62,279 nt of DNA, filler included, from Globobulimina sp. (GCA_003354225.1; 23 parts of 23 records of this genome joined end to end with filler, not necessarily neighbours in it), one strand, 5' to 3'. Counted from the first letter of the whole stretch, positions 7,422 through 62,167 are shown. Program-made: numbers and translations. The notes: generated by a model from the sequence alone, not told the origin.

Positions 7422-8042
7422 ATGCAGGTTCTGTATTCATTATATTCTAAGAATTAATTAGTTGGAAACCAAACAAAACAAACAACAGTCCGCTAATTCT
7501 TCATCAATTGGCAATGATACAAATCCATGTCAACCACCGTTAAAAAAACAAAAAGCATCTACCAATCCACCAAAAAATAATAATAATAAAAATTCCAAAG
7601 AAAATTTCAATCCAAACCGTTCAAATAAATCACCGCCAAAAAAACGCCCATTATTTAAAAAACCGCGCAGAAATTCGGACGAATCGCCATTGGAATTTGC
7701 CAAAAAGCGCCAAGAAGCAGCAAATGATAAATATGGTGGGCCACGGACTTGGACAGTATTTCATTGTAAACGGTCAAATAAAAAACATAAAAATTACTTG
7801 GATGGCATATTAAGACATGACGGTAAAAAATTATATCTTTTTGACGTTGATTCCGCCAAACAAATAACCACTGCTTTATGGACCAAACACTTCCAACAAA
7901 AAATCGACAAAGATGAACCAATTTATTTTGGCTCCTTTCAAGTTGAAATCGACTCAAAAATTCCTGAAAATCAATATCAATCTGGACAGTGTTTCAACCA
8001 ATCAATAATTCCCGCAAATACATCGATATCCGCTGTCAATCG
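7422..8042 (+). CDS. DUF2439 (ZGRF1/Rad54B N-terminal-like) protein, 3' truncated; intron 7428-7461
   Basis: WTVFHCKRSNKKHKNYLDGIL..LYLFD..FGSFQVEID. ATG CAG|GTTCTGT...TAG|TTG supplies an ATG start for the TTG-started ORF. Confidence 0.7.
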
Positions 8043-8182
8043 NNNNNNNNNNNNNNNNNNNNNNNNNNNNNNNNNNNNNNNNNNNNTTAATTAATTAANN
8101 NNNNNNNNNNNNNNNNNNNNNNNNNNNNNNNNNNNNNNNNNNCATGTTTGGATTTACCTGTCAATTTGTGAACAGCAAATCA

Positions 8183-9529
8183 ATGGACACAAAGAATGAC
8201 CAAACCAAAATGCCATGGAAGTCTATACAAGAATTATCCAACTTGCTTCGTAAAATAGGCAATGGATTCCGAACTCTTGATGAATTTGATGGTTCTGTAA
8301 ACAAACTAAATAATGTTTTAAAAATACTGAATGAAACAGATGCATTGAACAAATGTATTTGGCTCATACACATTAATGAGAATAAAATGTGCATTCGAGA
8401 TTTAATATTTGTCCACATCCAAACTATTGGACATGTTTTCCTGCAAAATGACCAACAAAACGCCACCAAATCACTGAAAACAGACATAAAAAATTACCAA
8501 AACTTTTTCAAATATTTATCCAAATTATTATCATCCGATTCATTTAATTTATTCACTAGAAAGCAAATAAAAAAACTTAAACAAATTACAGAATCAGTAA
8601 GAAATTATAAAAAAGATAATCAAATGTCAATCATTGAAAAACAGCATAATTTATTAAAACAGAAACAGAATGAATGTAAAATGGATACTGATGTTATTCA
8701 AAGATTGCAAGCAAAGCTTACTCCAAAAAGATTGAGTCGATGTGAAATGGTATTAAAACAAAGAACGGATCGAATTATTTTAGTATTGGACCAATGTTAC
8801 GATGTTCGCAATCAATGCGCTATGTTGCGGACTGCGGAGCTATTCGGAATACAAAATATTTGGATGGTTAAACCTGTAAATTATAAAAATATGAAAGTGC
8901 ATAACTCTGTTTCCCGCCATGCACAGTTATGGTTAACATTGAGATATTTTAATTCTTCATTGGAATGTATTCATGCTTTAAAAAAGGAAAAGGAAAATAT
9001 GAAAATCTGGGTCATGGATATTGGCAAAGGTGCATTGGAATTATCTACGGAAATAATTGATGAATATAGAAATAAGAAACGCATATTTCCACAGCATTTA
9101 GCTGTTGTAATGGGCAAAGAAGCGGAAGGGCCAAGTGCGGAGTTTCTAAAATGTTGTGATGGAAAAGTATATTTGCCACAGTTTGGGTTTTGTGAATCAT
9201 ACAATGTCTCTGTGGCCTGCGCATTGGGATTGCAATGTATATTTTCAATGGATGCAACCATCAGAGGCACAATGAGTGAAATTGAAAGGAATAAATTAAG
9301 ATATTTGTGGTATTATCAGTTAGTGAATGATAAGGAAATAAAACAAGAAATGGGAGAGTTAATAAACAAAACAATTGAATTGAATGGAAATAATAATAAT
9401 ATGAATAATGATTTTCGAAGGGATGGATTTGAACATTGGGATTCAAACAAAATAAACTTTAAATTGAGAAAGAAACTCGAACAACAACAAACACTCAATT
9501 TCTTGCAACAAGCGAATGATAATGACTAG
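8183..9529 (+). CDS. SpoU/TrmH-family RNA 2'-O-methyltransferase with N-terminal extension
   Basis: SPOUT motifs: ILVLD...N..AMLRTAELFG, AVVMGKEAEG.S, VYLPQFGFCESYNVSVA. Confidence 0.9.
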   Translation: MDTKNDQTKMPWKSIQELSNLLRKIGNGFRTLDEFDGSVNKLNNVLKILNETDALNKCIWLIHINENKMCIRDLIFVHIQTIGHVFLQNDQQNATKSLKTDIKNYQNFFKYLSKLLSSDSFNLFTRKQIKKLKQITESVRNYKKDNQMSIIEKQHNLLKQKQNECKMDTDVIQRLQAKLTPKRLSRCEMVLKQRTDRIILVLDQCYDVRNQCAMLRTAELFGIQNIWMVKPVNYKNMKVHNSVSRHAQLWLTLRYFNSSLECIHALKKEKENMKIWVMDIGKGALELSTEIIDEYRNKKRIFPQHLAVVMGKEAEGPSAEFLKCCDGKVYLPQFGFCESYNVSVACALGLQCIFSMDATIRGTMSEIERNKLRYLWYYQLVNDKEIKQEMGELINKTIELNGNNNNMNNDFRRDGFEHWDSNKINFKLRKKLEQQQTLNFLQQANDND

Positions 9530-10008
9530 CTCGTACATAATTAAAGAATCACATATCTGAGCCGGTTGATCTCGAGCAAAGCTCTCGACGACGGATAGAA
9601 AATGTTTTTTACACAATTCATCAAAGACAGTCAATACCACTCTGATTTAACTTGTCTCGGTATTATCCTCAGTAATTTGGCGTACATATTATGAATGGTT
9701 ATTCTCGAACCCTTTGGGTTCTCGAACATTTTATTATTAGTATTAATTATTGTATTTTATTTTGTTTTGTTTCGTATGGTTTGTTTTGTTATTTTGTTTT
9801 TGTTTCATATGGTTTTTAATATACAAAAAACAAAATTCCCATAAACAAACACATTGTACACAGAATACACAAATAAATCTGCTTCGCCTCGGCAAATAAC
9901 TTTTAAATTTCAGAAACCTCAGGGATATTATATAATTTGCTGCATTTTCCATACAAATGCAAATACATAACTATTCGCCTTTAATGATCCATTACTGGCG
10001 TAATTTGA

Positions 10009-10165
10009 GCACTGCAATCAGTGCACAACTATTGAGCTAATTTTAATTTTGGTGCTTGGACTTGTTCTTAGTTCCATTGCATGACTTGTGGTGATCGGAC
10101 TTCAACTTTTGGAGTTTAAATAATCGCTCACCACAATAAATTAGCTCAATAGTTGTCTGCAGTGC
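10009..10165. mobile_element. Palindromic MITE-like element (family shared with 60916-60979)
   Basis: Perfect 19-bp inverted repeat ACAACTATTGAGCTAATTT (10025-10043 / 10138-10156). Inner pair TTGTGGTGATCG / CGCTCACCACAA and outer pair GCACTGCA / TGCAGTGC. Confidence 0.75.
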
Positions 10166-10222
10166 AAAGTTTAGATGATTTAAATGTTGAAAACTAACAG
10201 TTTTGGCTTCTGAAGTCTAATA

Positions 10223-10756
10223 ATGGTGTCACAAGAGACAGTTTACATGACGGTAGCTATCAGTCTGACTGTATTTGGATCTATAGGTAATGCTCTGGGA
10301 TATGTATGGCAGAAAAGAGGACATTTGTTGCTCATTCAAGAAAATGAAATACGTAAAATACAACACGAAGAACTTAAACCATTAATAACGCATAGAATAT
10401 GGCTCATTGGATTCATTGTATGTCTTATCGGCTCTATTTCGACTGCGGTTGCATTTAAATTTGGGGCTCAATCAGTCTTATCACCACTGAGTGCACTGGT
10501 TTTAGTGTGGAATGCAATTCTCGCAAATAAAATTCTAGGCGAGTCTTTCACACGGAATAATTTATACGGAATCATATTGGTTATCATAGGAACAATTGTT
10601 GCTATTATTTTTGGGCCCAAATCTAGCACTGCGCCCATTACATTGTCATACATTGAGTCATGTTGGAGAAATCATATTTTTTTAATCTTTTTTATTGTAT
10701 TGAGTCTATTGCTGTTGATTGACTATGTTTTGCTGAATAGATTTGAAAAGAAAAAC
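10223..10756 (+). CDS. NIPA-family magnesium transporter, 3' truncated
   Basis: GNALGYVWQKRGH, IWLIGF, AFKFGAQSVLSPLSAL.LVWNAILA...LGE, FGPK. Confidence 0.88.
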
Positions 10757-11283: not shown

Positions 11284-12930
11284 TTAGATATAAGCATCCT
11301 CGTATGGAATAGCATGGCCTATAACATTTTGCCAACTATCTTGGTTATCTTCCACATATAAATCCATGTAGGTATCTCTTGTTATTAACACCTCACATTC
11401 ATCACTGAATTTACTTATCCACGATACGTCTGCACAAACAATACCGCCTCTACTTTTTCTTTCCATTTCAATTATCATTCCACCGTTGTTATTCTTTTTA
11501 TCATTATTCATATATTTGATTGCAACATCCCTTTTCCATGATGCACTTACAAATGTTTTAAATATTCCTCTTTGTTTCTTTTCCACTAAATTTGTTGTTC
11601 GTAAACCTGTATAAATTTTATATTCACCACATTCCTTTATGTGTAATTTGCAAATTGCTGAATCTAAACAATATTCCATCCACTGCCATTTATTTTTAAT
11701 AATAGCATTAGAATTAGGATTAATTGTTTTATTTCTTTGATACTCTGATAAATACCAATTACATTCACATCCCGTATATAATATAATTGCTAACATCTCG
11801 CCACGGTTTAATGGAGAACCTAATGCTTTATGTCGGGAATGATTTATTTTTTCATCCACAATGCGTAATATTCCATATTGTTTTTTATTTTTTATTTTAT
11901 TATTTGTAGTCGTATCATCTTCTGGAATAATTAAGTCATTCTCAAATCCATTTTTTTGCATTTCCGCAATCAATGCATTCAAACAACCATCTTTTTCTGA
12001 CCAACTCCATTTTATTTTAGCCATACTCGGTATTCTCCTCTTATTCATTAAAAATGGTTTGTTCTTTGATGTGATTTCAATCTCTCTATTTCTGGGAGGA
12101 TGTCTATATATTTTCATATGACATCTATCATCCAACCGATTCCCTCCTTTTTGTAACCTTAAATATTTGAAACATTCTTCATCGTATTTCTTATCATCCA
12201 TATATTGACACAATTCTTTGTCATAAATATCTTTGTAATGTGTAAATTCATTTAAATGTTTTAAATATTCCTCTGTGTATTCATAATCTTCTTTTACTTT
12301 CGCAAAAATAGGACATTTCCCACTATTTCTAATATATTGACATGTGATTTGCGTTCCAGCGGCGGATACATCATGTTTTAACTTAACAGATACTGTTAAT
12401 GTGTTATCTTTACTCTTCCACCAATGACAGACACTAAATGTTTGGGGGTAATATTTTTTTTGCATTTCTCGTTCAATTTTCGCTTTTATTTCTTTTGATT
12501 TTGCGATTTGCAGCAAAAGACTGCCAACTGATAAATCAACATTGATTGTGATTTGTGTATTGTTGAAATCAGGGTTACCACCACAAATAACTATAATATT
12601 TGCTACAGCATGAATCTTTGGAGGAGGTATTTGTGCTTTGTTTTTCTTACTTTTCTTATTGGTTTTAGGTTGCATTGTTTTTTTGATTTGATATTGTTTG
12701 TTTTTTGCATCATATTTAAATTTTTTTAAATTGTTAGCCAATGTACTGTTAAATCTGCTTCCTACACAAATCTTGTATTGTTTTGCAGAATAATTAGTTT
12801 TGATATATTCTGAAACTTTCTTTTTTGATGCTTTTCCTGGCAACGAATTTATAGCTTCAGTTATCATTTTGGTCCAACCAGGATGACTCTTTTTTGTTAT
12901 TGCTAAAGCTTCATTTGTTTGCTTAGTCAT
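11284..12930 (-). CDS. Linker-histone(H15)-like + tandem PBZ-like zinc finger + R-S-E-clade ADP-ribosyltransferase domain protein
   Basis: N-term SHPGWTKMITEAINSL..ASKKKVSEYIKTNY, then a Lys-rich linker. Two C..C...H-x5-H motifs (HLNEFTH, HMKIYRHP). C-term LAIILYTG, KIYTGL, FVSASW...VA, ADVSWISKFSDECEVL. Confidence 0.75.
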   Translation of the reverse strand: MTKQTNEALAITKKSHPGWTKMITEAINSLPGKASKKKVSEYIKTNYSAKQYKICVGSRFNSTLANNLKKFKYDAKNKQYQIKKTMQPKTNKKSKKNKAQIPPPKIHAVANIIVICGGNPDFNNTQITINVDLSVGSLLLQIAKSKEIKAKIEREMQKKYYPQTFSVCHWWKSKDNTLTVSVKLKHDVSAAGTQITCQYIRNSGKCPIFAKVKEDYEYTEEYLKHLNEFTHYKDIYDKELCQYMDDKKYDEECFKYLRLQKGGNRLDDRCHMKIYRHPPRNREIEITSKNKPFLMNKRRIPSMAKIKWSWSEKDGCLNALIAEMQKNGFENDLIIPEDDTTTNNKIKNKKQYGILRIVDEKINHSRHKALGSPLNRGEMLAIILYTGCECNWYLSEYQRNKTINPNSNAIIKNKWQWMEYCLDSAICKLHIKECGEYKIYTGLRTTNLVEKKQRGIFKTFVSASWKRDVAIKYMNNDKKNNNGGMIIEMERKSRGGIVCADVSWISKFSDECEVLITRDTYMDLYVEDNQDSWQNVIGHAIPYEDAYI

Positions 12931-12966
12931 GATCAACCCAAGTGATATCAAGAAAACACTTTTTGC

Positions 12967-13470
12967 ATGATGGCAAATCCATTTCCAAGTAGATACGAAT
13001 TAAAATGTTCAGGAATTTCGTTTATTTTGTCTCAACTTTTAATACTTTGTGCATTCTTTCTGTATGCAATTGATTATGATTCGTACTCTGTGCAAAATGA
13101 AGAACAAGTGATTGAACTCCATAACGTATTATCATCAAAAGAGCATCGAACCGAAGTTGAAATTGCAGTTTCATGCATGTGGTGCGCCTATCCGTTATTA
13201 TTAATCGGCTTATTTGGTTTTTAACAACAATACATAAGGAAACAGGCGAAATGTTTTTATTTGCAGCAGTTCAATCGTATATTATTTTTATTACAATAGT
13301 TTGTGTAGTAATACCCGCCATTGCTCTCACCACCACTTCATTTGAATGGTCCTTTCATGAATATACGCCAGAACCTGATTTTGTAGCCACTGGCTATTAC
13401 ATCCAATTATATCTCCAAGTATTTGCCGCGGAAATGGTAGACTGTGCTGCCGTGGCCGATGCTGTATTTA
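12967..13470 (+). CDS. Multi-pass membrane protein, frameshift at 13218-13222, 3' truncated
   Basis: Hydrophobic helices are split across ORFs 12967-13224 and 13173-13470 at a T5 run. Confidence 0.5.
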
Positions 13471-15516: not shown

Positions 15517-16184
15517 CTACATTTGTGATCCATAATCAAAATCAACGTCTGGATCTTCCGCGTCATCTTCTAGTATGTCGGTGTTTGTTTTTGGGTATGA
15601 ACCAAAAGCTTGCTGATTGACATGGATCTGACTCCGCGAATATTCCGAACCATGGCCATGCGCAGATGTCTGGCTCTCCATTTGTTGCACTTGGGCATAA
15701 TAATCCAAATCACTGTCTAATACGAATGAGGTTTGTTGAGCATGTTTATTCCTTGCAGTCGCAGATGGATTATTTATAGTGTCCATCATCACCATCCCTG
15801 TATTATTGGCCTGTGTGTCTTTCATCATTGGTGTGGATCCATGCCCATCTTTCGAGTGTCCGTATATCTTTTTATATGGTTTACTTTGTACGCCATTATT
15901 TTCATGATCCTCACTTTTCATTACATCACTCGATAAATCCAGAATATGATGTCTTTGGCCTTGACTCTATATTTTAGATTGATTTTATATATATAGCAAT
16001 ATGAGGGAGTGAGTAAGGAGTAACTGGTGGTTTTGGCTTTGGATTTGGATTAAGATTTCTATCGTTAAATTGCTGTTTATTGTCTTCTTCTTCTTCATCG
16101 TCGTCTTCGTCGTCATTTTCATCAGATTCCTCAGCTACATTTATCATCGTAACAGATTTCATTCGCATATTGGCCCGTCCTGTT
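15517..16184 (-). CDS. Low-complexity C-terminal part of an unknown protein; intron 15967-16024
   Basis: A GTTACT...TAG phase-0 intron joins ORFs 15974-16168 and 15517-15921. Confidence 0.55.
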
Positions 16185-18997: not shown

Positions 18998-21518
18998 GGT
19001 ACACGATACGCGACGGCTCAGCCTTTATAAATAATTATTTATCAAATTGGGATTTTGAAGCAAGTCAAGATGGCAAAACATGGCAAACTATCCATTCAAT
19101 CGAAGATAACCATGCTTTAAAAGGTAAATATAACAAAGAATTTCCTTCTGCTTCGTTTGAAGTTAAACAATGCGAAGAATTTTATTCTTCGTTTCGAATA
19201 AAAATGAGTGGTCCAAATAATTTGGCAAAGTATTCATTTTTTTTATGTGGTTTTGAAATTTATGGCAATGTCCGCAGAGTGAACAGTTTGTATTTATGGG
19301 TTTTGGGACAATGGAAATATTGGCTGAGGATTTTTGGATGGAGGTCGTTGGAAGTTACATCGCGATTATTTATATTAACGATGATATGGTTGGTATTGGG
19401 TGGCATCGCATTTATTATCGCAGTATGTGTGGATATATGCATTGCTATATATGCTGTAAAAAAATCGTATATGAAAGATATGGGATATGACTTTGGATGG
19501 ATTAATTGGTTCATTTATATAACACACACTGATATGAACAATGAATGGCTGCCCTTTGAATGGTTAGCACAATGTTGGAGCCATAAAAACCCCGAATATG
19601 ACGGATTGATCCAAGAAAATGCTGAGAAACAAAGAAAAATTGAAGCAGAATTAAGAAAAGACAAAGAAGATCAAAATGAGGACGAATTACAACAAAAACT
19701 GGCCGAATTGGAAGAAGAAGAGGAGGAAATTTATAAAATTGAGAAATTAACACGTTTTAATAATGCTTGTTGTAATCGTTTCTGGTTAGATGATGATTTG
19801 GATCCTTTACATGAATTTACAGAAAGATTCAATACAGAAATGTTTCGCTGGAGAGTTATTTCACACATTATCTATTTGATATTGATTACAATTTTTGTGT
19901 ATTATCCATTAGGTCTACCAAACGATGATGCCATTGTACCTCGCTTTGAATTGCGAAACGAGTTCGCATTGAACAATAAAACAGCACCTACAGATTTACC
20001 TAAATATGTTTTTATTTATACGTGGATGGCAACAATATTGTGGCCGATGATATTCTTATTTTTAAAATACCAGAATTCTGATAATTTATTAATTGCATTA
20101 AACAGTTCGGAGGATGTGGAAAGAAGACCAGATTCATTGTATACGTCGGAAAATGTGCAGCCAATTCGAGAAATGGTATATCAGCGCGCAAGGTTGGACT
20201 GGGAAAAGTTTTTAAGTGGGATAGATCCTGGCAATTCAAATAAAATTCAGTTATTTTATGAGTGTTTTATTATTCGGCCGGAAATAAAAGAATTGGTAGA
20301 ACCGATGACGAAGATATTTGAAGAACACTTAAAATGTCAAGATATGCATTTAGCGGAATATATGTTGAAAATCAAATGTAAGATAAATCATTATGGATTG
20401 GATAGAGGATTAAGTTGGAAACAAGAACAAGATCATACTGAGTGGAGTACCACCATTTCATTTTTAATGTATTGTATAAAGGGATACTTTTATCCAAATG
20501 ATATGATTTATGCTGCGAAAATATTGTGGAAATATTATGATTATGAAGAAAAAATAAAACAATTACAATGGAAAGATGACAAAGGAAATACCATTGATAA
20601 TATAAATATTTATTGTGTTACCAATGAAGGGAGGGAGTTGGTACAATCGTGGCGAAAAGAAGTTGATTTGTCGGAATTGCCGCATTTAAACCAAAAAACG
20701 AAGGGTTATCCACGTCGTCAATCATATGTTATGTGTTATATGTTTATGTTTATATGTTTATAAGTTATGATTTATATATTTATATTCAGAGTGAATCGTG
20801 GTTGGAAGATTTTGATTTAAATGATTACAAAGAAGAGGAAGAAGAAGAGGCACAAATTAAATTAAAAGAAATGCAGAAACGTTCTGCCAATTTATCGGAT
20901 CTAATGTGGGAAGAACAATGGCATCCAAATATGCATATAAATGATGGCTGGCCATTGGAGAAATTAAATATAAATGAATTAGAGAATAAATTAAGAAATT
21001 TATGTAAAGCATATCCAATTTTTATGAATACAAAAAATGAAAAAATATTAAAATATCTTAAGGATTATAAAAAAGAACATGCTCAAAACTCTCTATCAGA
21101 TAATTATAAGAAAAAACAAGCTGAAATTAAAAAAATTTTAATTGCAAAATACAAAGAAAAAAATGTAAAATTTGATTTAGATAAAAATGAATTTAAATTA
21201 ATTACAAATGCAAAAAAAGAAGAACCAGAAGAACCAGATTTGGATTTGGATGACTTAGATTTGGATGTCGAAGATTTGGATTTGGATTTGGACTTAGATT
21301 TGGAAATAGATTTGGATTTGGATTTGGAAGAAGAAAAAGAAGACAAAGATAAAAATAAAGAAGAAAAAAATAAAGAGGAGAGTGATTTGGATTTAGATGT
21401 GGATTTAGATTTGGATTTGGATTTGGACTTAGATTTGGACTTAGATTTGGACTTAGATTTGGATTTGGATTTGGATTTAGATTTAGATTTATCGGATAAT
21501 GACGATATAAATTTATGA
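18998..21518 (+). CDS. XK-related membrane protein with F5/8-type (discoidin) domain and poly-(Asp-Leu) tail, 5' truncated; intron 20728-20789
   Basis: NWDFEASQDGKTWQTI...FRIKMSGPN...LCGFEIYG (discoidin-like) is directly followed by WRSLEVTSRLFILTMIWLVLGG (XK-like). The GTTATGT...CAG intron joins ORFs 19204 and 20733. Confidence 0.65.
21237..21491 (+). repeat. Hexamer microsatellite-like coding repeat (GATTTG/GATTTA/GACTTA) encoding (DL)n
   Basis: Two tracts of alternating Asp-Leu in the C-terminal exon. Confidence 0.95.
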
Positions 21519-21710
21519 TTTTGTGTGTATTGATATTTTGTTTGTAATTTTTTGACTTTTTTGTTTGTTTGTGTGTTTTTTAGACTCGCTTATTTTTACT
21601 GAATTTCTTANNNNNNNNNNNNNNNNNNNNNNNNNNNNNNNNNNNNNNNNNNNNTTAATTAATTAANNNNNNNNNNNNNNNNNNNNNNNNNNNNNNNNNN
21701 NNNNNNNNNN

Positions 21711-29846: not shown

Positions 29847-32045
29847 TATGGCAAAGAATATTCCATAAATATTTCGAAACTTATATCCAAAGCAAAAACT
29901 ATCACAAAGTTGCAACATATCCACTCTTTGCTGATTATAAAGGATGATATATTTATAAGCACTGCTTTAATAAAACAATATGGTAATTTGAATGATATCG
30001 AATCAGCACTGAATATATTTAATTCAATGCTGTTGACAAAGAGAGATGAAACAATGATCGGTGTCATGCTGCAAACACTGTTAAAGCATGAATGCTACCA
30101 ACAAATGTTAACAATGTATGATTGCTTTGAATATCACAAATTAAATAATGACATTATTAATGCATCAGTGTTGAAAGCATGCATTGAAGCAAATAACTTT
30201 GAAAAAGGACAAGAAATCCATCAACATTTCGCAGCTGTAATCGATTCTGTTTCCATTCAATTAAAAACGTGTTTGATTGGGTTTTATGGACATTTCGGTG
30301 ATATCGATACTGCACAAAAACTATTCAAATCATTTGTGTGCAATAATAATGATATTATAATCGTAAATGCCATGATGACTGTTTTAATCGGCAACAAATA
30401 TTATGAGAATGCACTTTTATTATATGAAGAGACAGCTATGTCCGTAAGGAATATTGTTACGTTTATAGTAGCAATAAAAGCGTGTATTATTAATGGTAAT
30501 TTTACAAAAGGAACGCAGATTCATCAGGCAATTGTTGGTAAAGGCTTTGCGGTAAATGATGATTATTATCATTTATTCAATTTATTGATTGACTTTTATG
30601 GAATGTTGGGAGATGACATGAATGCAATGATAAATATTTACAATGAGATGACTGCAAAGAACATAAATGATATATTGAGTGTAGCAAAAGTAATGAAAGG
30701 ATATATAAATAATGGGCTGATTGATGATGCGCTGATATTTTATAATGAGGAATATTTAAAAGTGAGTATAAATGCAAGAAATGCTTCAAATCCGTATATA
30801 TTAAGCACATTGTTTGAAAACTTTAAAAACATTGGACAGACTCGCAATGTTGAGAATATTTTGAATGATAATAAATATTTATCTTCTTCTGCTTCTTCAT
30901 TATTTGACAGCAGAACTTTGGAATTATTGCTTATTTGTATTCATAGAACATCGAAATATTACCAATATCATCACAAACAAGTCGACCAACAACAAACGTT
31001 TCCCTTTCTGTACAAGGTTTGGAATGAAATTGTGAACAAATTGGGAGTTAAACCAGATTTGAATTGTTATTGCATCGCTATTTTAGCATTGTCCAAATAT
31101 AATATAAATAATAAAGAGTGCAATGATATGTTTAATAGCTTAATAAGTGATATTGTAAATGATAATAATATGATAAATGAGTTACAGTTAAAACCAATTG
31201 AATTCCATCGAATATTAAAAGGTTTAGGAAATGCAAATAAATTGAATGAAATGTGGTTAATGTATAATAAGATTATCTCAGAGGTTCATAACAAGCATGA
31301 TATTGTTGCATTGAATATTTTACTGGAATTTGAAAATAGAAATGAAAAAAAACAAAAAATTTTAAATATTATCCATTCACATTCATATTTGTATCAATGT
31401 TGTCTTTGCAAATCTTTTGTTAATAATCAATGTCTCAGAAAAAACAAAGACGAACGGAATAATGAAAATTGTATTGTTGATAATAATGATAAATTCAAAC
31501 ATTTTGATATAAATAACTTGCGATTATATGAAGTGATTACATTATTTTTAAATTGTCAGAATATTGACAGTAACTTACAAGCATATTTATGGGAAATGCT
31601 ACAAAAACCAAATGTAAATGAATCAAAATTAGAAAGTAACATAATTGCTATGTTTAAATTAAATGGAACAGAATGGATTATACAAAATGGTATTTATCAT
31701 AAATGCAGATTTAAATCAATGGATAAAGTGAATGAGTTAATGAAACAAAGTAATTATTCAATTGATAGCTCAGTTTGTATTGGATCTGTTACAAACAGAA
31801 AAACACGAGAAGTGCATTTAAAATATCATGCCGAGAAAAAAGCATTAGCCATTTTGTTGCATGAAATGAAATTAATGAATAATAAGAATAATAATATTGA
31901 TATTTCTGTTGCAATTTCACTCAAAATGTGTAAAGATTGTCATGCATTTTTTGCAGCTATGTCTAAATATTATAATCAAAGTATTACATGTTTTGATTCC
32001 AATGGAAAACATTTATTTTCTCACGGAAAATGCAGTTGTAATTAA
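29847..32045 (+). CDS. PPR protein with C-terminal DYW-type cytidine deaminase domain, 5' truncated
   Basis: PLS-like PPRs (TALIKQYG..DIESALNIF, VLKAC...FEKGQEIH, LIGFYGHFGDIDTAQKLF). C-term HLKYHAEKKALA...ISLKMCKDCHAFF..SK..NQSITCFD..GKHLF.HGKCSCN*. Confidence 0.92.
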   Translation, partial: YGKEYSINISKLISKAKTITKLQHIHSLLIIKDDIFISTALIKQYGNLNDIESALNIFNSMLLTKRDETMIGVMLQTLLKHECYQQMLTMYDCFEYHKLNNDIINASVLKACIEANNFEKGQEIHQHFAAVIDSVSIQLKTCLIGFYGHFGDIDTAQKLFKSFVCNNNDIIIVNAMMTVLIGNKYYENALLLYEETAMSVRNIVTFIVAIKACIINGNFTKGTQIHQAIVGKGFAVNDDYYHLFNLLIDFYGMLGDDMNAMINIYNEMTAKNINDILSVAKVMKGYINNGLIDDALIFYNEEYLKVSINARNASNPYILSTLFENFKNIGQTRNVENILNDNKYLSSSASSLFDSRTLELLLICIHRTSKYYQYHHKQVDQQQTFPFLYKVWNEIVNKLGVKPDLNCYCIAILALSKYNINNKECNDMFNSLISDIVNDNNMINELQLKPIEFHRILKGLGNANKLNEMWLMYNKIISEVHNKHDIVALNILLEFENRNEKKQKILNIIHSHSYLYQCCLCKSFVNNQCLRKNKDERNNENCIVDNNDKFKHFDINNLRLYEVITLFLNCQNIDSNLQAYLWEMLQKPNVNESKLESNIIAMFKLNGTEWIIQNGIYHKCRFKSMDKVNELMKQSNYSIDSSVCIGSVTNRKTREVHLKYHAEKKALAILLHEMKLMNNKNNNIDISVAISLKMCKDCHAFFAAMSKYYNQSITCFDSNGKHLFSHGKCSCN

Positions 32046-32610: not shown

Positions 32611-34417
32611 ATGGATATGAGATTATTGACGGTTAATGGATGGTGTTTTTTATCCATCCAATGGTTATTATTTGCAATTATTCAATTGAAAATGTATGGT
32701 AATAATGCAGCGCAGCTGACATTTAAATGTTGAGTATATATACCATATTATACTCGTTTATCAAATTAAATGAAATTAAACCAAATCAACTTAATTGTAT
32801 ACCATTCAGCGACAGATATACCGGATGAATATTGTGTGGATGAATTTAGTTGGGATGCTACACGTATACATGTTCCATTATATTGTGACGATATTGACAA
32901 TATTTTAGTTCATTACTGTGGCAATGTTACTTTTTTTAGAATAATTGATGCCTCTTATTGCGAAGCACTCGATTCAACACAGCATTTATGCACATTCTTC
33001 CTTCAAAACGGACAAAATATGCAGCAAACATATATTTTATCCGATAATATTCCAATAAATCAAATTAAATTTTCATCAATTTCAAATAATGAAACAAATA
33101 TTATATTATCCAATTCTTTTTTAACGGTTACAACATACGAAGGATCGGTTGATATCACAAATATTGATTTCGCATCAGATGGAAGCATATTTTCCTTCAT
33201 TGACGTAGTTGCGGATGATATTCAGTTATATATTACCATTGAAAATTGCCAGTTCATTGATATGAATGCAACGAATGGATCCATTGTGAATATACCAAAG
33301 AATACGAGGAATAATGAGTATGTGAAGGGAATCCAACTAACATTTGAGTTGAGTGTATACTTATTTATTATGACTATCTTTTTGAGCAAACACAAAGGAA
33401 TTGACACAAACCAAAATAAATAACCCACAAAAACTTGACCAACAAATATTTTTTTTTAGGAATTGTAAAGTTGAGAATGTATTTGCAGAATTTGGCGCAA
33501 TATTATACATTGAAAGGAATAATGTAACTGTGACATTTTCTCATTTTGCTATGACAAATATTATGTCATTTGATGCGGTACATTGGCTTTGCCAAAAAAG
33601 AAATGATGGCGCTGATCTATGCGGTAATTTATTTATAACAAATTCTGATATTTATGGCATAGACTCAAATATATTTACCATTGATTTATCTTTAGATCCA
33701 GCACAAACGTACTTTATTTTAGATGTTGATACGTCAATATTTACCAATATCAATGGCATAATATTCAATTTTAATCGCGCCGATGATAAATTAGCACCAT
33801 CAGCTATGCGCATACAGCAACAAAACGCATTTGTAAATGTCCAAAACTCACATTTCGAGGATAATGGCATTGTCGTAGGCCGGGTATCATTGTGGTATCT
33901 GTATAGCTCAAATTATATTTATTTAATGGAGTACCCACATAATGGGACTATATTTACTATTAATTCAATAACCGTACCAAATATAAGCATTGGAAATAGT
34001 AATTTCACGCATAATGCAGGCTGTTATGGTGCTATATTTTACTGGTATTGTTCACGAAAATTGCAATTGATAACAGATACGTATTGTGGCAGTATTTCAT
34101 TGCAAAATAATATATTTTTTAACAATATGATCGGGCGAAATCGCTACAACGTAGCAATACGATATGGCTCATTATTATATGCCCAAATACATGAAAATAT
34201 GAACTTTTATTTGCTGATCGAAGACTGTGAGTTCATAAAACAAAGTGGTAATTCAATACATTTTGAGAAATCCACTGCAGAGCTCCCAATGGTGGCTGAT
34301 ATCTATTCCAATATTAGTAATATCTCAACATCTAATTTGAAAAGAAAAAGAAAATCCATGAGAGAATCATCGATGCGACATATAAAAATAAATCAATTGA
34401 TCAAAAATTGGAATTAA
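32611..34417 (+). CDS. Secreted beta-helix-like (pectin-lyase/Pmp-like) protein; introns 32729-32809 and 33348-33459; C-terminus aberrant
   Basis: Signal-like N-terminus; repeats I.NC.F..N, FGAILY, YGAIFY, NSHFEDN. Both introns restore the frame (LTFE|NCKVEN). Confidence 0.65.
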
Positions 34418-35086
34418 GAAAGATGCACAGCTTAAAATATTGTGCTCGATGCGGCCATACATACACCACATCGCATGATCGTTGTGAGAAATGGAGAGAC
34501 CGTCCCAGAGATATTCGTGATGGATCGCAAGCAATTATTTTTACCTCCGGATCCCCCGCACATACATCGAAGATTATGTTCACTGAGAATGTAATCATCC
34601 AGAAAATATTGGGTCGAAACCCATATAGTATCTCGGACGCCGCGTTAATGGATTGGCGATTGGAGGAGGCCACAAAACAATTAATTGGCAATATCACATT
34701 GGATGACCAAATATCACATAATTGACTTAGTTGAGAAAAAAGAGGAGAAATCGGCGGAATTGGAGGAGGATTCAACTGTTGGTGTTGTCGTTTGCATGGA
34801 CAAAGTCGACGCATTATTGACTAGGAAGTATTCGTTCGGCTCGGCACCTTTATTGATGCAGGAAGTGCGTTATAGGATCACTGCCACGGTGCCAAGCGAT
34901 ATAAATGATGTAGGCAGTGACATTAATGGCTATTCTCGCATCACTTATGCCACAATATTGCTATTCTCTAGGGATGTTTATCTGTTACGAATTTGGGGGA
35001 CCGGACGTTATTTCTTCCCAATGCTGCGGCGTCCTTTTGTTGTTGTACTTAATTGTTTAAAACGCATAATATATCCAGAGGAATAG
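34290..35086 (+). pseudogene. Degenerate zinc-finger/RING-like gene remnant
   Basis: CARCGH..H.RC, VVCMDK.DALL and HLY*CRKC...LPRC are spread over different frames with stops. Confidence 0.35.
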
Positions 35087-36676: not shown

Positions 36677-36702
36677 GATGAGGACGGAAAAAAGTTTTTT
36701 AT

Positions 36703-37882
36703 TTAAAACTTAAAATAATATTTGTCATCTTCAACGATCAATTTGTTATTGAATCCAAAATAAAATAGCAAAAAGTTCTTTGCTTTTGCAGGTAATTTGA
36801 GATTTTCCAAAGCAATGGTTTCCAATTTGGTTTCATCAGTTTTTTCCGCCAATATCAAAGATAATTTCTGTGCCAATTTGGTATACTCAGTTTCTTTAAT
36901 TTTTGGCGATCCTGCATTGTGTTGATGTGGCATATACAATTTAAATGAGGTTAAAGATTTTGGCAAATTATCCAATAATTTCAAAACTGGTTCACAATAA
37001 CCCTCATAAATAGAAAAAGTACCCTCGTAAAATAATATATTTATTGCACTTAATTCAAAATTATCCTCAACATTCTTAATAAATGGAATAAAATGAAGAT
37101 CGACAAAATCAGCAAATAAAGTTGGAATATCATTTCTTTCCGTCCATGCACAATCTGTTTCATGTTTTAAATTTGTTAATGATTTCAAAATATGAATACT
37201 GTTCTTATATGGCATACTTTTAAATGCCAATGATTGTAATGTTGATATTGGTGGATTGTTCAGGCAATAAATTCTTTTATTTCTTAACAAATGTTTTAAA
37301 ACTGGTTGCCAATTAATTGGAACTTCAACAAATGAATATTCATAGTCAAACGTAAACATTTTAATACCAATAAAGCATGAAAATAATTTAGTTAATATTT
37401 GTTGAGCATATTTTGCACAGTCTGGCACTGAATATATGGGACTCAGTATGGAGGCAGTACTTCTATCCAATGTTACATTCAATTCTTGTACAGATATACA
37501 ACGGTGAACACTATCAATTGCATTATCCGCATCCATCTCGAGCGGTGATGTAAGACAAGTGATTGAAAATATTTTTAAATTCTTCATTTTTGCTGCAATC
37601 AAAGGAATTAATGCGTGTTGACGGTGCAACACATTCCAATGCCGACAATCTAAAGTCAATGATTCTAATTTATTATAATTGTTAATCACAGGAATAATGA
37701 TAGATTTGCTCAATGTGGATAGTTGTGGTGTGTCCCTCGTCGGATCAGCAAAACCAGGCAAAATAATTCCAAATTGAAAATGTTTTAATTGTGGAAAATG
37801 TGTAATTAATTTTGCTTGAATTTGCATGACAAGTTTCTGTATATTAATATCAAATCTTTCTGATGGTTTAAAAATATCCCTA
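36703..37882 (-). CDS. Leucine-rich-repeat-like protein, 5' truncated
   Basis: Repeated LxxLxL patterns (KLESLTL, NLKIFSI, SLTSFKL, KLETIAL). Confidence 0.5.
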
Positions 37883-39309: not shown

Positions 39310-40594
39310 ATGATGTATTTAGCCATAATTGCAACATTAATTATTGCGACTCGTTCACAGCCCGTGGCAGAATGTTAGTGCACGTGTACCCAATCTCAAT
39401 TAATTTCTTTTAATTTGAATACTATATAAATTTTCTTTCACACATATCTCTAATTAATGCACAGGTGAAGTCGATTTAGAGTGTGCTACCGGCGAAGTGT
39501 GTGATTTCCCAGGCACTCCCATTGCAACGTGTGCGCCCCAATGCGAAAATAGCACTGTATGTCATGTACGTTATGCCGAGTTTATTACGCCCCCAAATGG
39601 CTTTTTAAATGAGTCTGCGATGTTCTGTGTGAATGATGGATCTGTCGATAAATGTGGTGTTTTGCTCTGTCAAGCTGATTCCGACTGTCCTGATGCCGGT
39701 GCGGGTATTTGTTCCACTTTTTTAGCGCCTGTGGTTCGATTGTGTGTGGAGTGTGAGGAGGACTCTCAGTGTAATTCCACCAGTCCAATATGTGATGCCC
39801 GATTTGAGTCTGATACCTCATTTGAATGTGTACAATGTTTAGCCGACGCAGATTGCGTAGCAGGCGAAGAATATTGCAATACTGACGACTCCTCCTTCCC
39901 GTATTGCGAAACAACCTGTGAGTATGAAGAAAGCTTAGATGCGGCCTACTGTTCGGACATGGTTCGCAACGGTGTGTGTGACCCCGCCTTCTCCAATGAC
40001 TGTGTTACCCGCGACTGTTATCCTGCTGATATTAGTAATTGTAGTGAGACCGTTATAGACGTACAGCCCAATTGGAATGTGTCTTATAATGTGACCTTCC
40101 CCGATGTCTGTAATACCGACGAGAGTTATTTGTGGTGGTGCGAATCAGGTACGTATATGTCTGGTATAATATATTTGTATTGCGAATTTGCGTAATGATG
40201 AAATAATAAATAAATAGCAAGTTGTAGCAATACGGACGGGTATTGTGCGGCTGTGTACCCTCTAGACCCTTATGTATGTAGTCAGTGGGGTGACTGTGAT
40301 TTGCAATACTGTTTAGATGATAGTTATTGTGATGATATTCCATATCCAAATTGTATTCGTGGCCCATGGGGGCCGGACTACGGGTATTGTCTGGATGTCT
40401 GTACGGTTTATGAACATAATTTTTGTTATGAAATTTATGGAGATGACTTGATTCACTGTAATGCCGTGACCGGTGTATGTCAGAACGTGGATTGTAGCGC
40501 AGATGCAGATTGTTCGCCGTACGGGCTTGTCTGTAACGGCGGCACTAATCTCTGTGATTATGGCTGTGCGAATCAGACGCAGTGTGATAATAAT
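39310..40594 (+). CDS. Secreted cysteine-rich repeat protein, 3' truncated; introns 39374-39464, 40149-40217
   Basis: Signal peptide MMYLAIIATLIIATRS; C-x-x-D-x-D-C repeats (CQADSDC, CLADADC, CLDDSYC, CSADADC). Confidence 0.8.
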
Positions 40595-40866: not shown

Positions 40867-42760
40867 TCAAGTTGTCTGTACTTGCATACGCACATCATTT
40901 GTATCAACATTTATATTTTCCTGTTCCTTTAATTTTTTCTGTTTTTGCTCCAATTTCTTCAATCTCCGTTCTTCCTTTCTTTTCTTATCCGATATTTCAG
41001 CTTTCGATCTATCAGAACAATACCAAACCATTATCCATGGTTTATAAGTAATCGGCAAAAAAAACCCAATACAGCCCTCCCAAAACTTCCTTCCTTCCGA
41101 CAATGTCATTAAAGCTTCTCCGAACTCAACAAACTTAATGCAGCCACTCCCATCCTCACACTTATCCAATTCAGCGGTTTTAAAAACCATATCACAAATC
41201 TCTCCACTTGTTAATATGCCAAACTGTGAGGGGAAATATGAGCGTCTTGTAATGAGTGAATCCGTCGTAAAATGCCCAGTTATAATCATATCATCCACCA
41301 ATGCAACTAAATCATTGTATGTTATCTCTGCCTGTTCGGCGTCGATTTGTTGTGTAAAAATACGGAATGCAATCTCTGCTTTGTTGTATAATGTGTCTGT
41401 AGTTATTTGAGATAAGGCAATGAATAATGTTTTCAATGGGATCACATTGGATGATGGCAGCTTATATTCGGTGAAAAATATATTTATATCCCATGGTTGT
41501 AATTCCTTTGTTTTTGTGGTTAGCCGTTTTGTTCTAACACTTTCATATTTTTTTGTCAACCATTTCAATTCACGTTTCTTGTCCTTTGCTGTCAACTCAT
41601 CATCGTATTCACGACTTAAACGAATATCTTTCTCGCTTTCTCCGTCGCCATTCAATTCCTTTGCGAATTAAAAAAAAATGTCCCATAAAACTTATTATGT
41701 TACGTGTCACGCATAAATGCGATGAAAAAGAAAGTTCGAAAGGTTTTTTTTAACGAATGAGGACAACGTTGGATAATTACGTTTTGTATAATTACAACTC
41801 CCCAAAAACCACTGCAGCCACAACTATTGACATAAGTACAAGCACTGAACTTTGCGTTGTTTGAATATATTGGCGGCGTTGACGAACAATTCGCCAAATT
41901 CGTCGACAGTCATTGCAGCATCCATATCATTATTACATTCTTCATTCAATATCCAATAATATAAATCAATTAATTGTGCATTATTTAACATTGCCATATC
42001 TCGTATTGACCGCGCATCGCCACTTGACGCAGAAGAGACATATTCTGCTCTTCGTGTCGCCATTTTTTTGGCTTTCCTATTATCCAAAACATACAACAAC
42101 AGCGGTGTTAACAATAAAACAATGCTATAGCGCTTCCAAAATTTAATCCTCGCTTCACGTTTTTTTTCTTGTTTTGTTTTCTGTTTTTGTTGCACTCTCA
42201 GCGCCGCGGACTTAGCTTCCTCGTCGGCTGATGGCATAAAGGTTTGTGCCGGTAAGCCAGAAAACGTCGTCATTTCATGCATATTCAATGGTTCTGAGGG
42301 CTGTTAGTCAGATATTGATAGAAATTTCATAATTGGAAACAGAGTGTGTACATAGTACCGTTGCTGGTTTACGTGCGAGACGCTTAAAGGGCCATCGGTT
42401 TGGCAATGAGATGGATAATTGCGGTCTTTCTTCATCGTGTATGTGGACTAATGGCCGCCTGGAATCGTCTGGTTTTGGTATGGATGGAGTGGCTGTTTGG
42501 TCTGGCAACTCTTGTTCGGTGGTGATTGGTTTTTCATTTTGAGTGCTTTCTGTGTTGGGTTCTTCTTTGGATTGTATGTCATCTTTGGATGTGGAGAATG
42601 CAAAGGTTTGATGATTGTGAAATGGAGATTTGGATAGATTGTGTTTGGAGTAGCTATAGTTTCGGACTGATATGGTTTTAGAGTGTTGTATTTGTGACAG
42701 GTGCACTTGGTTGTGATTGTGCAATCTGAGGTTGTTTGAGAATCTGCAGATATGTCTCAT
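40867..42760 (-). CDS. Mitochondrial-presequence, single-TM protein with EF-hand-like C-terminus; introns 42301-42358, 41659-41850
   Basis: Arg/Ser/His-rich N-terminus, TM YSIVLLLTPLLLYVL, calcineurin-B-like KAEIAFRIF, ITYNDL, EDGSGCIKFVEF. Both introns are phase 0 and restore the frame. Confidence 0.65.
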
Positions 42761-45109: not shown

Positions 45110-46016
45110 ATGAAACAAGGTGGCGGATTAAATCCTGAATTTAGTTACGATGGCGCCAGTGATGATGGTATTTATGAACCACAGACGCTACGTACCTCAA
45201 TGTCTAAAAAAGATGACCAACGACAAGGAACACCAACATTAGAAGGATATCGAATTCAAGGAATATATTATAAAGTACGTACACTATATGATAGCATGCT
45301 GCATATTTTTATATTTCTATTCATATTTTAACAGAAGCAACGTGCGCATCGATTACAACACAACGGAACAGATGGAGCTAACGCGTTGATTGCTTTATGT
45401 AATTTATTATTTCTGCAAGAAAAAATGAAATGGACCAAGGGTTCAAAACGTGTAAAATTGGAGGAATTACAGGAATTCTTAACAGCGATTATACCCAAGT
45501 TGGTATTAAATAGCCGGTTGAAGGATAAGCTCAGGTCGATAAAGGAACACTATGAGTTGAAGATTTTAGGCGAAATGATTGCCGAATTAGAAAATAATAA
45601 CTCACACAATATTGAGCTATTTAGTGATTTAGGAGTGAAATTATTTGACTGTGACAAAGTTTCACTCTGCAAATTATATACGGAAATGGCTGAAGATGAG
45701 TTATGTATTTTATATAAAAAGGGAGGGTTTTATGCAACCATTGTAAAACACGAAAGTATTTTATATCAATTTGTGACTGAGGAAGAACTGATTGACTGTG
45801 ACCCGCAAATAACTTGGAAAACAATGTTAACTCCGCATCAATGCGGCAATGAGCAATATACCAATAATAAATTTGGACAAACCCATGTCGGTAATAATAA
45901 AATACATTGCGAGACTGATTCGAGTGTAGCTAGCAACTGTAAATTGCCACATGTTGCTAACATAAAACGCGAGTTATCAGCAAAATTATTATCATTAGGC
46001 GACGAAGATGTGGATG
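45110..46016 (+). CDS. MINDY-1/2-like deubiquitinase homolog lacking catalytic residues, 3' truncated; intron 45275-45334
   Basis: YRIQGIYYK|KQRAHRLQHNGTDGANALIALCNLLFLQ and ELCILYKKGGFYATIVKHESILYQFVT...ITWKTM align by eye to MINDY1 NGPCPLLAI.N.LFLQ and ELSVFFRNNHFSTMTKH..LYLLVTD...VVWESL. Confidence 0.7.
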
Positions 46017-48974: not shown

Positions 48975-49869
48975 ATGCTAGGGTTATTGGCTTTATTCAT
49001 TGGTTGTGGCGTTTGTGTGGCTATAGATAACTATGTCGGTCCAATTAATATAAAAGAAGGTGGACAGAATGTAACCCGATATGTGTTATCAACATATCCA
49101 CCAAACATCCATATTGAAGGTGGATCGACCATTGTCCTCCAACATAACACTGGTGTTCAAATTGCGCAAACAGCAGCACATAATTACAGTGCAGGTGTCT
49201 TTATGGAATACAAATTATGGGGCAAAACACTGTCGTATACGGCAGATTTAAGCACGATTGATTGTTCATGCAATGCTGCGTTTTATTTAGTATCAATGCC
49301 AGGATATGGTTCAAACGGACAACCGAACCCTGGCAAAGATGGAAGTTATTATTGCGATGCCAATTATGTCAATAATGATTGGTGCTGGAGTTCGATATAA
49401 TGGAAGCAAATAAAGTTAATACTATCTATATATGACCACATATATATATAATTAGTATGTAACCCAAGTTACACCGCATGAATGCAGTCAACCGCCAGGT
49501 GGATATATCACTAATTGTGATCGTGGTGGATGTGGCACGAATGGATATAATGTGGACCCTAAAGGGATGGGACCTGACTCAAGCTTTAAAATTAACACTC
49601 AAGCGCCATTTAGAAATTCCGTAACTTTTGGTTCAAATTCATTTCATGTCAAACTTAGCCAAGGTTCAAATACGTTTGAATTTGATTCTTGTGATAATGC
49701 CCAATATGTACAAAATATGGCACAAGCGTTGAATTATGGAATGACGATAGTTATGTCACATTGGGGGGATACTTACAGTACAATGCAATGGTTAGATGGC
49801 AAAACTGGATGTAGGGGAGACTGCAATGGGAAAGGTTTTGTGAGATTTGGTGATATTGAAATAAGATAA
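48975..49869 (+). CDS. Glycoside hydrolase family 7 (endoglucanase-like); intron 49415-49455; one-base frameshift at 49387
   Basis: Signal peptide; LSYTADLS..DCSCNAAFYLVSM, YYCDAN, catalytic [E]FDIMEAN, TPH.C, CDRGGC, MAQAL..GMTIVMSHW, MQWLDG. Confidence 0.88.
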
Positions 49870-52829: not shown

Positions 52830-54149
52830 ATGAGCAACATAAATATTGCCATATTTTGTGTATTTGTGGTAGTAAATTAGTTGAGATCAAAATCAAATTT
52901 AGTATCATACATTGCGATCGATGTTACAACAAATTTGTGTACGATCATATCGTGTATGAGTGTGTCGAAAAGAATAATAAAGTACATCCAGATGGTTATG
53001 ATATTTGTGAAAAATGCATAACAATCCCCAATAAATCAAAACTCACAACAACACCATACACCACACTCAAAAATAAGCGTTTAGATTATGATGATGATTT
53101 ATTATTGTTGGCATTAGGTGATACAAACGGTGATGTTGTTGGAGCTGTGAAATGGTTGCAAAAGAACGCCATTCCTGGAACAATAATACCAAACAACACC
53201 AAACATAAACCAGTTAAATACAGCTATTTTTTACTCTGAACTCTGATAATGTACATGTGTTAAAATAAAGAAAATACAGAACCAAACAGAACAGAAAGAA
53301 CCCACACAACTTACACAAGACACACAACATAATGTTACAGAACATACAGATGCAGTATCATCAGTATCTTGTGGTGATATTAATTGTCCTTCGATGAAGA
53401 GAACATGCGACATATTAACATACTGTCAACAATGGATTCAAAACAAATCAAATAACATCAACGATAGCATAACCCGTCAATTAGAGAGCATTTATCAGAA
53501 TTCTGAATGCTATCATACTAAATTACTAAATGATTTTCACCATTTAATGTTTTGCCATGAATTTGAAACTATTTATGATTATTTAATGAGTGCTGCGGGA
53601 TTACAGCATATATGCCAGCTAGCTTCGTGCAAAATGTTTGAAAGAAATCATCGCGATCGGTTTGAATGTCCATTGGAGGACACATCGGAGTCAACGGATA
53701 CAGCGGAGTCTGTGCAAGAAATAAATAGTCAACAAATAATTGACAAAATACATTGTTTTTTTTTACATTCATTTGACACTGGAAACAGATTAACTGCAAA
53801 AGAAAGAAAAGTGATTGGCGAAGTTGAGAATGATGAAAAAGGTGAAATTGATAATACATTATCTGAATTAGTTAGAATTGTCCGTTCAAAGAAAAATTTG
53901 ACGTTACCAAATAAAAAAAAATTCAATACAACACACACAATGTTTAGTTTTGGAACACACTTTGTTTATCGTCAATGGAAAGGATATAAGGAGTTATTGG
54001 ATGAAACCAATAAATATGAGGAGAAAATGCGTACATATGTTGATGAAACAAGCAATGTTATAATGCTGCCAATTGATTATAAACATAACTCATTTAAAGA
54101 TGAAATGTTTTTCAATAATACCTGTACAGTGACAATTAAATCAATTTTA
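52830..54149 (+). CDS. ZZ-like Zn finger + UBA-like + lineage-specific domain protein, 3' truncated; intron from 53213 to 53270 or 53279
   Basis: CICG, CDRC, C..H..GYDICEKC; LALGDTNGDVVGAVKWL; LLNDFHHL...RNHRDR...DKIHCFFLHSFDTG. Frame slip near 52855. Confidence 0.55.
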
Positions 54150-60766: not shown

Positions 60767-60915
60767 GTGTTGATGGCTTTTTTTTCAATATAAAAACATC
60801 ATAAATAATTTAAAAAATCATAGGATTACAAATTTAAACTAAATGCTACTTTTTATCTGATTATTTGTAAATGTATAGCTGTGTGTTGCAGACACAATGA
60901 AAATTATAGGTCAAT

Positions 60916-60979
60916 GCATTGCAGTCACAACTATTGAGCTAATTTTCATTGTGGTGATCGGACTTCAACTTTTGTAGTT
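60916..60979. repeat. Partial second copy of the 10009-10165 palindromic element
   Basis: ACAACTATTGAGCTAATTT and TTGTGGTGATCGGACTTCAACTTTT are identical to 10025-10043 and 10086-10110. Confidence 0.85.
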
Positions 60980-61192
60980 AATCGGTCACTGGTTGTTGCT
61001 GTTGTACGTGCAGTGATTGCATGGGTTGATATGCGAGATAAGATTAGTTGTTGGTGCAAGTAATAATTATTTTGCAAAAGAAACGTGCACAACGAAATGT
61101 TACAACCATGAACGGAATTGTTGAATTGATCTTGTAACAGCATAAATACAGTTGAAAGTGCAAAATACATTTATGGGAGAAACATAGACAAT

Positions 61193-61341
61193 AAAGAGCA
61201 TCCGGTTTTCAGCGTCAGATTTTTATTGGTGTAAGGTAGATACAAACCGTTTCTGGTGACTGACAAAGGCAAAAATTATATAGGTTTGCCTTCGTTTCTC
61301 AGAAACAATAATAATCTGACGTTGAAAACCGGATGCTCTTT
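61193..61341. mobile_element. ~150-bp MITE with 36-bp terminal inverted repeats
   Basis: AAAGAGCATCCGGTTTTCAGCGTCAGATTTTTATTG (61193-61228) versus the reverse complement of 61306-61341: 34/36 identical. Internal AAGGCAAA/TTTGCCTT stem. Confidence 0.8.
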
Positions 61342-61424
61342 TCTCAATGTAATATATTGCAAGTTATTGAAAGATTTTTGATGTTAACGAAAAACATTCA
61401 AACAAGTTCAGTACTCTTGCAATA

Positions 61425-62167
61425 ATGCTACAAAAAGACGAACAGAAGAAATCAGAAACAAACGATGAAAAATTGAAAAAGTTAAGTTTGGTTCTTTGCT
61501 TTCCCCATAACAATACAGTGAATATACTGATTTTGAACCTCACCCATATCACAGCACTGTGTACGAAATATTTCCATATTTATTTTTATCCGCTTTTCCA
61601 GCAACAAAGCAATATAAAGAATTAAAAGCGATGAAATTAACAAATATTATAAATGTGACAAACAACAAAGTCCCAACAAAAGAACAATACAAATTGTTTG
61701 ACGTATTGTATTTGCCATTGCTTGACAATGAAACCTATGATATTCTGACCGCAATTAAAACATTGGCATTTTATATTGATTCCTTAGTCACAAACAATAA
61801 AAATAAAAAGATTTTAGTCCATTGTTCTGTCGGTGTATCCCGCTCTGTTTCAGTGATATTGGGATATTGTATGATTTATAAAAAGATGAAGTTATTGGAC
61901 GCATATAATTATGTTAAAAATATAAAGTCAAACATTGGACCAAACCCAGGATTTATGAAACAATTAATTAATTTGGAAAAAAAAGTGTTAAATACTAACG
62001 TGCCGAGCTTAAAATATAGAGACTGTGTTATTGCATTCATAAAACAAAAATTCCCCTCCAAAACGAACAAAGAAATCGGTCAAGTTTTAGATAACTGCAA
62101 CGGGGATTATTTTTGGGTACAAAATGTTTTAGTTTCTTCACGGCAGCATACTCAAAATAAATATTAA
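61425..62167 (+). CDS. Dual-specificity phosphatase with CUE-like C-terminus; intron 61481-61518
   Basis: EIFPYLFL, IINVT, PLLD, ILVHCSVGVSRS, PNPGFMKQL; C-term FIKQKFP...IGQVLDNCNGD. Confidence 0.93.

Follow-up and report, generated by a model that had tools for sequence, protein, structure and literature searches.

Do the introns of this genome use two kinds of 5' splice site, one of the familiar GTA type and one that begins with GTT and has its conserved downstream GT a base further into the intron? The question arises from a 62,279-base stretch of DNA (the window throughout), in which a first-pass annotation had noticed, among roughly 22 placed introns, ten beginning with GTT, six of them of the form GTTNNGT, and had described them as a major class across independent contigs. 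The window is composed of 23 pieces, each 2610-2614 bases long, with N44-TTAATTAATTAA-N44 spacers between them, so the donor sites do lie on independent contigs, and all 16 donor strings quoted were found in place, the one at 4698 on the minus strand, which had gone unmarked. The GC content of the pieces is 28-39% (about 31%), with the first piece (1-2614) an exception at 48%. The closest proteins for three genes are EukProt entries from Bolivina argentea and Nonionella stella, with 54-82% identity, which is why the organism is taken here to be a foraminifer or closely related to one. The shifted GTT donor class looks real, given an offset that is specific to the class and good pairing to U1 small nuclear RNA (snRNA) in a bulged register. 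The explanation that we favor, at a probability of about 0.5, is that these are ordinary GT-AG introns with A or T at +3, and that an ordinary U1 would read the latter with a bulge or a shift of one base.

We tabulated 18 introns, 8 with GTA and 10 with GTT donors (coordinates of the introns discussed are given in table 1); our searches were aimed at GTT sites, so this 8:10 ratio is no estimate for the genome. Proteins of related species, compared across the junctions, served as the yardstick for donors, and introns were classed as placed by homology (class A, seven introns), by frame logic (class B, eight) or as ambiguous (class C, three). All 18 begin with GT and end with AG, as U2-type introns do, and their lengths run from 34 to 349 nucleotides (nt). 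The seven checked against homologues are all colinear with them once the intron is removed, 33348 narrowly, and the 11 others were placed by frame logic alone.

Five of the ten proposed GTT donors, namely 32729, 33348 (with a caveat taken up below), 41850, 49415, and 61481, are supported by colinearity with homologous proteins. The first two belong to one gene (seg13), and the Bolivina proteins P0001 and P0002 align on both sides of each intron. The donor at 32729 is the only GT that joins both frames, with a model score of 252 against 195 for the next donor, and the product spliced at 33348 is colinear with the same two proteins over the junction, gapless. The 41850 junction is crossed with equal residue number by P0020 (Nonionella), P0016 (a Bolivina fragment), and P0004; the homologues crossing it include a Logan contig with an unbroken open reading frame (ORF), and the model scores 1032 against at most 966 for any other donor. 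A metagenome scan with this seg16 family found no relative. The phosphatase-domain ORF of seg23 has no ATG ahead of the domain; among three possible first exons, that at 61425-61480 shows homology to the N-terminal ends of two Bolivina proteins, P0021 (82% identity) and P0024, and with this exon 61481 is the only fitting GT donor. Its acceptor had been placed at 61518 (38 nt), but 61554 (74 nt) fits the homologues better (259 vs. 246 and 194 vs. 184). For the GH7-like gene, splicing at 49415 separates the stretches that align to residues 132 and 150 of PDB 8pof_A by exactly 17 residues; the donor comes after the Glu-x-Asp-x-x-Glu motif.

The intron boundaries could still be misplaced if the true donor were the GT at +6/+7 (giving GTATAT, GTGTAT, etc.), with the acceptor moved to hold the frame. 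Such pairs do exist at 20728 (GTGTTAT at +5, acceptor 2 nt further on), 7428, 33348, and 41850, and our own gene finder, which had no donor model, took a +5 or +7 donor at 20728 and 33348. Yet no frame-keeping pair occurs at 32729 or 61481, the +5 models at 41850 score at most 957 against 1032, and those at 33348 at most 506 against 524, with two or three residues lost, including a conserved Cys. We regard general misplacement as improbable.

At three further donors (7428, 16024, and 53213), no or almost no other GT-AG pair suits the flanking frames; homology gave no support here. Downstream of 7428, the ORF at 7462-8040 has no ATG, and this donor is the only solution that both retains the ORF and avoids overlap with the minus-strand gene; the gene finder agrees. 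The donor at 16024 is the only GT that joins its two ORFs. The remaining two of the ten proved ambiguous: about a dozen frame-compatible GT-AG pairs are available around 20728, none with a GTA donor, and no homologue of this gene was found within the searched length range of 322-1028 amino acids, while 39374 is one of four candidate donors and was the choice of the gene finder. Long repeats of low complexity lie at the 3' end of the seg8 gene (21107-21589), reading as (LD)n on the plus and (KS)n on the minus strand.

Unique frame solutions can mislead, as one further case illustrates. The sole GT-AG link of the ORFs 36706-37881 and 36284-36709, at 36660-36709 on the minus strand (donor GTTTTAAATA), is probably spurious, since the second ORF begins from an ATG (MSKRKR...) and seems to open a gene of its own, Rtf1-like in kind.

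The GTA class (GTATGT, GTACGT, GTAAGT, then R and T) is the ordinary kind. The intron at 407 provided a control, in that the Pfam and PDB WNK1 alignments stop and restart at its junction, and the intron at 42358 is colinear with P0020 and P0016 (model 577 vs. 534). In the TPMT-like gene a tight enumeration leaves two candidate donors, 4698 and GTGTTTTAAC at 4716. For the MINDY-like gene, the MINDY-1 alignment begins 12 residues inside the exon downstream of 45275, and the upstream exon has no PDB match. The GTA donor that the first-pass annotation placed at 15217 is unsupported, being followed by a stop two codons later with no downstream exon found.

Given these placements, where does the downstream GT fall? 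In the 18-intron table it occupies +5/+6 in five of eight GTA and one of ten GTT donors, and +6/+7 in six of ten GTT and none of the eight GTA donors, which bears out the earlier statement that the conserved G and T of GTT donors lie one base further 3'. Over both strands of the window, GTTNNGT makes up 130 of 2234 GTT sites (5.8%); six of ten against this background gives P=6.6e-6, a value that may be biased by the earlier reader's choice of sites. The agreement runs on beyond the GT, with R at +8 and T at +9 each in five of six shifted donors, compared with R at +7 in six and T at +8 in three of six GTANGT donors. These comparisons directly show the offset between the classes and, as finely as protein colinearity resolves them, the donor positions. 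That GTT donors are real and frequent in this sample is likewise supported; their description as a major class goes back to 62 kb only.

A rival account would be that donors here are merely loose, needing GT, then A or T, and hardly anything more, and that the +5 versus +6 offset is a small-sample or selection effect. A downstream GT is absent from the validated donors GTACTATG (42358) and GTTAATAC (49415) as well as from the class-B donors GTATTTTG, GTATATAT, GTTACTCC, and GTTAAATA; the earlier reader may have favored donor-looking GT sites; and the offset lacks significance when only class A is counted (P=0.2), n being too small. On the other hand, three of the four independent homology-fixed GTT donors (seg13 counted once) have GT at +6/+7, against the 5.8% background (P=7.5e-4). 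Within classes A and B together the offset is class-specific, GTA donors having four at +5 and none at +6, and GTT donors none at +5 and five at +6 (Fisher P=0.008), and the match continues to +8/+9. Looseness as the whole explanation is in our view unlikely.

What could read such donors? Taking the U1 5' end as AUACUUACCUG, as printed in PMC4856993, we counted pairs out of 11 in three registers (normal, bulged, and shifted). In the normal register the six shifted donors form 3-5 pairs. Bulging the +3 U raises this to 9, 10, 7, 8, 9, and 9, and moving the whole helix by one, to 7-9. At least eight pairs in the bulged register are found at 5.3% of 2228 GTT sites. None of the six has G at +5; with a standard U1 end assumed, their canonical pairing is weak and their bulged pairing strong. 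The GTANGT donors reach 7-10 pairs in the normal register; with pair counts so similar, each in its own register, both classes would present U1 with helices of comparable strength that lie a base apart.

The mechanism we propose would involve ordinary GT-AG spliceosomal introns whose donors accept A or T at +3. With A at +3, the U1-complementary part would lie in the usual register (GTA-N-GT-R-T); with T, most sites would carry the same part one base downstream (GTT-NN-GT-R-T). Most likely, an ordinary U1 5' end would then pair either with one U (+2/+3) bulged, the same thing as an asymmetric loop at +3/+4, or with the whole U1 helix moved by one, and cleavage would remain ahead of the first GT. 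The pairing register, the presence of a standard U1 5' end in this organism, and the genome-wide frequency of such donors are what we infer beyond the placements themselves.

A second or modified U1 that has gained or altered a base facing the +3 U could also read the class and would need no bulge. Two coexisting donor classes would fit two U1 species, and the co-evolution of snRNAs and donors in Entamoeba and Mastigamoeba offers a precedent (preprint 10.1101/2022.06.08.495308). The standard U1 end, however, already provides 7-10 of 11 bulged pairs; the same preprint records lineages with atypical donors yet standard U1; and nothing in the window bears on a second U1, Rfam giving 0 matches across its 62 kb and no snRNA gene lying there. 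We consider a variant U1 quite unlikely, and the variant U1/U6 or altered Prp8/U1C tolerance that the first-pass annotation thought might be needed is not required by the data.

Several points weigh against the two-register reading. Donor placement comes from protein colinearity and frame logic, not from spliced RNA, and a transcriptome origin of the EukProt entries is assumed. The number of introns is small, with two of the six shifted donors being repeats within one gene. That the organism has the U1 end used for pairing is likewise assumed. Both 20728 and 7428 have an alternative that uses the +6 GT itself as donor, and the gene finder took other donors at three of the ten GTT sites. The base at +4, the equivalent of the canonical +3, is A in only two of six shifted donors, and the shifted GT is missing in four of ten GTT donors, including the validated 49415, with 39374 having G at +5; hence the consensus is not simply displaced, and the clean one-base shift first described does not hold. 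Even a validated GTA donor, 42358, is without G at +5, and so donor sequence is on the whole loose past +3.

The seg13 gene adds two further difficulties. A contig from run X1, a paralogue of about 95% likeness whose RNA status is a guess, lacks 32728-32804, overlapping the proposed intron at 32729-32809: it matches 32637-32727, continues with eight other letters, and matches again over 32805-32889. This bridging contig also lacks 57 exon bases that have no GT-AG ends, and as a paralogue differing by indels it cannot fix the 32729 junction. Runs X1-X3 gave five pieces in all on the seg13 contig, none of them bridging 33348. At 33348, moreover, there is competition from an in-frame canonical donor, GTATGTGAA, 30 bases (10 codons) upstream at 33318, with scores of 524 for 33348 versus 522 for 33318. 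Of the ten residues lost with donor 33318, 5 agree with the homologue, and 33348 is favored for this reason; 33318 could be an alternative 5' splice site that drops ten residues, or both could be used. An assembly artefact adding a T was rejected, as the DNA-like contigs of run X4 show no difference at either seg13 donor heptamer (32729, 33348), though X4 may be the source data.

Elsewhere in the same gene, the downstream ORFs 33386-34414, 34336-34722, and 34685-35083 overlap in different frames (region 34250-34800), and no GT-AG pair joining the three was found. A run X4 contig has gaps of 3 bases at 34716 and 1 base at 34722, and the frame breaks are likely indels between copies, or assembly errors. 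The GH7-like gene likewise changes frame at 49374-49400, just ahead of the catalytic motif: frame 0 stops after ...NNDWCW, the motif is in frame 2, and no intron fits the change, which is either a 1-base assembly error or a sign of a pseudogene.

The gene finder predicted 40 introns (17 GTA, 13 GTT, 7 GTG, and 3 GTC) and picked seven of the ten GTT donors; it fused neighboring genes and missed the homology-supported donors 407, 33348, and 49415, and was used as a weak independent vote. A loose test of GT at ORF ends by +3 base found no enrichment, with 11.7% of GTA, 10.5% of GTT, 11.0% of GTG, and 9.5% of GTC sites passing, because ORFs of 40 codons are too common by chance. Listing the 32 GTTNNGTRT and 16 GTANGTRT sites of the window gained no secure new donor; one candidate, 42972, was dropped because its gene has its own ATG further in.

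Table 1. Introns and candidate introns in the window, by type of donor
Coordinates	Strand	Length (nt)	Donor	Donor type	Remarks
32729..32809	+	81	GTTGAGTAT	shifted	seg13; acceptor CAG
33348..33459	+	112	GTTGAGTGT	shifted	seg13; acceptor T9-AG; paralogous repeat of the 32729 junction
41659..41850	-	192	GTTCAGTGC	shifted	seg16; acceptor AAG
61481..61554	+	74	GTTAAGTTT	shifted	seg23, phosphatase-domain gene
49415..49455	+	41	GTTAATACT	T at +3, without shifted GT	seg19, GH7-like gene
7428..7461	+	34 (or 61)	GTTCTGTAT	shifted	after a 22-codon first exon
15967..16024	-	58	GTTACTCCT	T at +3, unshifted, without G	
53213..53270	+	58	GTTAAATAC		only donor in tight enumeration
20728..20789	+	62	GTTATGTGT	shifted	candidate; ambiguous
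39374..39464	+	91	GTTAGTGCA	T at +3, G at +5, unshifted	candidate; ambiguous
407..465	+	59	GTATGTGT	canonical register, GTATGT	WNK-like kinase gene
42301..42358	-	58	GTACTATGT	GTA type, without G at +5	seg16
4624..4698	-	75	GTAAGTAT		TPMT-like gene
45275..45334	+	60	GTACGTAC		MINDY-like gene; tight enumeration; class B

Other genes of the window may be mentioned briefly. The first contig (1-2614), with its WNK-like kinase gene and GT-rich intron, may belong to another genomic compartment or even another organism. An intronless ORF of 732 codons at 29847-32042 (plus strand) encodes PPR repeats with a DYW deaminase domain at the C-terminus (E=4.1e-10); proteins of this kind drive the C-to-U editing of organellar RNA in plants and in a small number of protists. 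On the minus strand, an ORF of 571 codons (11287-12999) carries an NAD:arginine ADP-ribosyltransferase domain (E=3.7e-6) and, near the N-terminus, a weak linker-histone match.

It is tempting to extend the two-register reading to foraminifera at large. Tentatively, and with some doubt, one may picture a donor code in this group in which a third to half of introns begin with GUU, most of these with the U1/U6-complementary G-U one base further in. If true, a bulged donor nucleotide, or a second U1, would be a routine part of splicing and not a rare exception. Noncanonical U1 registers have so far come almost only from rare human donors and disease mutations, and a lineage with many such introns would be a natural system in which to ask how cleavage stays exact when the helix with U1, and later U6, is out of register; it would also bear on the co-evolution of snRNAs or Prp8/U1C with donor sites. 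On the practical side, very few foraminiferal genomes exist, and the annotation of genes in this group would go wrong with gene finders trained on GTR donors.

How does this compare with known systems? A common T at +3 is already known from Entamoeba, where it is unshifted and nearly universal, and bulged or shifted registers are known as rarities; two coexisting classes one base apart, at such frequency, were not found in print, with supplementary tables and possible donor matrices outside the scope of the search. At human 5' splice sites, a shifted U1 register was reportedly described by Roca and Krainer in 2009, and the bulge +2/+3 and +3 registers by Roca et al. in 2012. According to PMC4856993 (Tan et al. 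2016), predicted human donors include 68 with a bulge at +2/+3, 51 with a bulge at +3, and 349 with an asymmetric loop at +3/+4, of 201,541 and with fewer after curation, so that such registers amount to well under 1%; the architecture of the test oligo printed there, GUUUAGUAU, with an asymmetric loop at +3/+4 or a bulge at +2/+3, has experimental validation in rare human donors. The likeness to rare mammalian donors with shifted or bulged U1 pairing, pointed out at the start, agrees with this source: the donors described here share the GU start, the U at +3, the absence of a +5 G, and the G/U one base later, in the layout of GUUUAGUAU, and they pair well to AUACUUACCUG only with a bulged base or a shifted helix. 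They differ in frequency, the shifted type accounting for 6 of 18 tabulated introns, and in that the human registers were proven by suppressor U1 experiments, whereas ours are predicted from DNA sequence.

The extended GTATGT-type donors of yeast and other protists resemble the GTA class of the window, but come without a +3 T class. Minor (U12-type) donors carry the motif [AG]TATCCTT, which is present in none of the 18 donor strings. PMC11347168 reports no minor-spliceosome snRNAs in Rhizaria and 2.1% "minor-like" introns in Reticulomyxa, and the foraminiferal papers PMC6783311 and PMC3079666 speak, in the parts available, solely of canonical introns. The closest parallel among protists is perhaps Entamoeba, whose GUUUGU donors face a U1 recognition sequence AACAAAC, Mastigamoeba having its own variant (Roy and Bowser preprint, 10.1101/2022.06.08.495308). 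Common to both cases are an AT-rich protist, a +3 T that is a common, lineage-typical donor base, and a possible link to snRNA. Yet Entamoeba has an intron-poor genome with one nearly universal consensus and an unshifted +5 G, whereas here two classes coexist, 8 GTA and 10 GTT, with G at +6 in six of the ten GTT donors.

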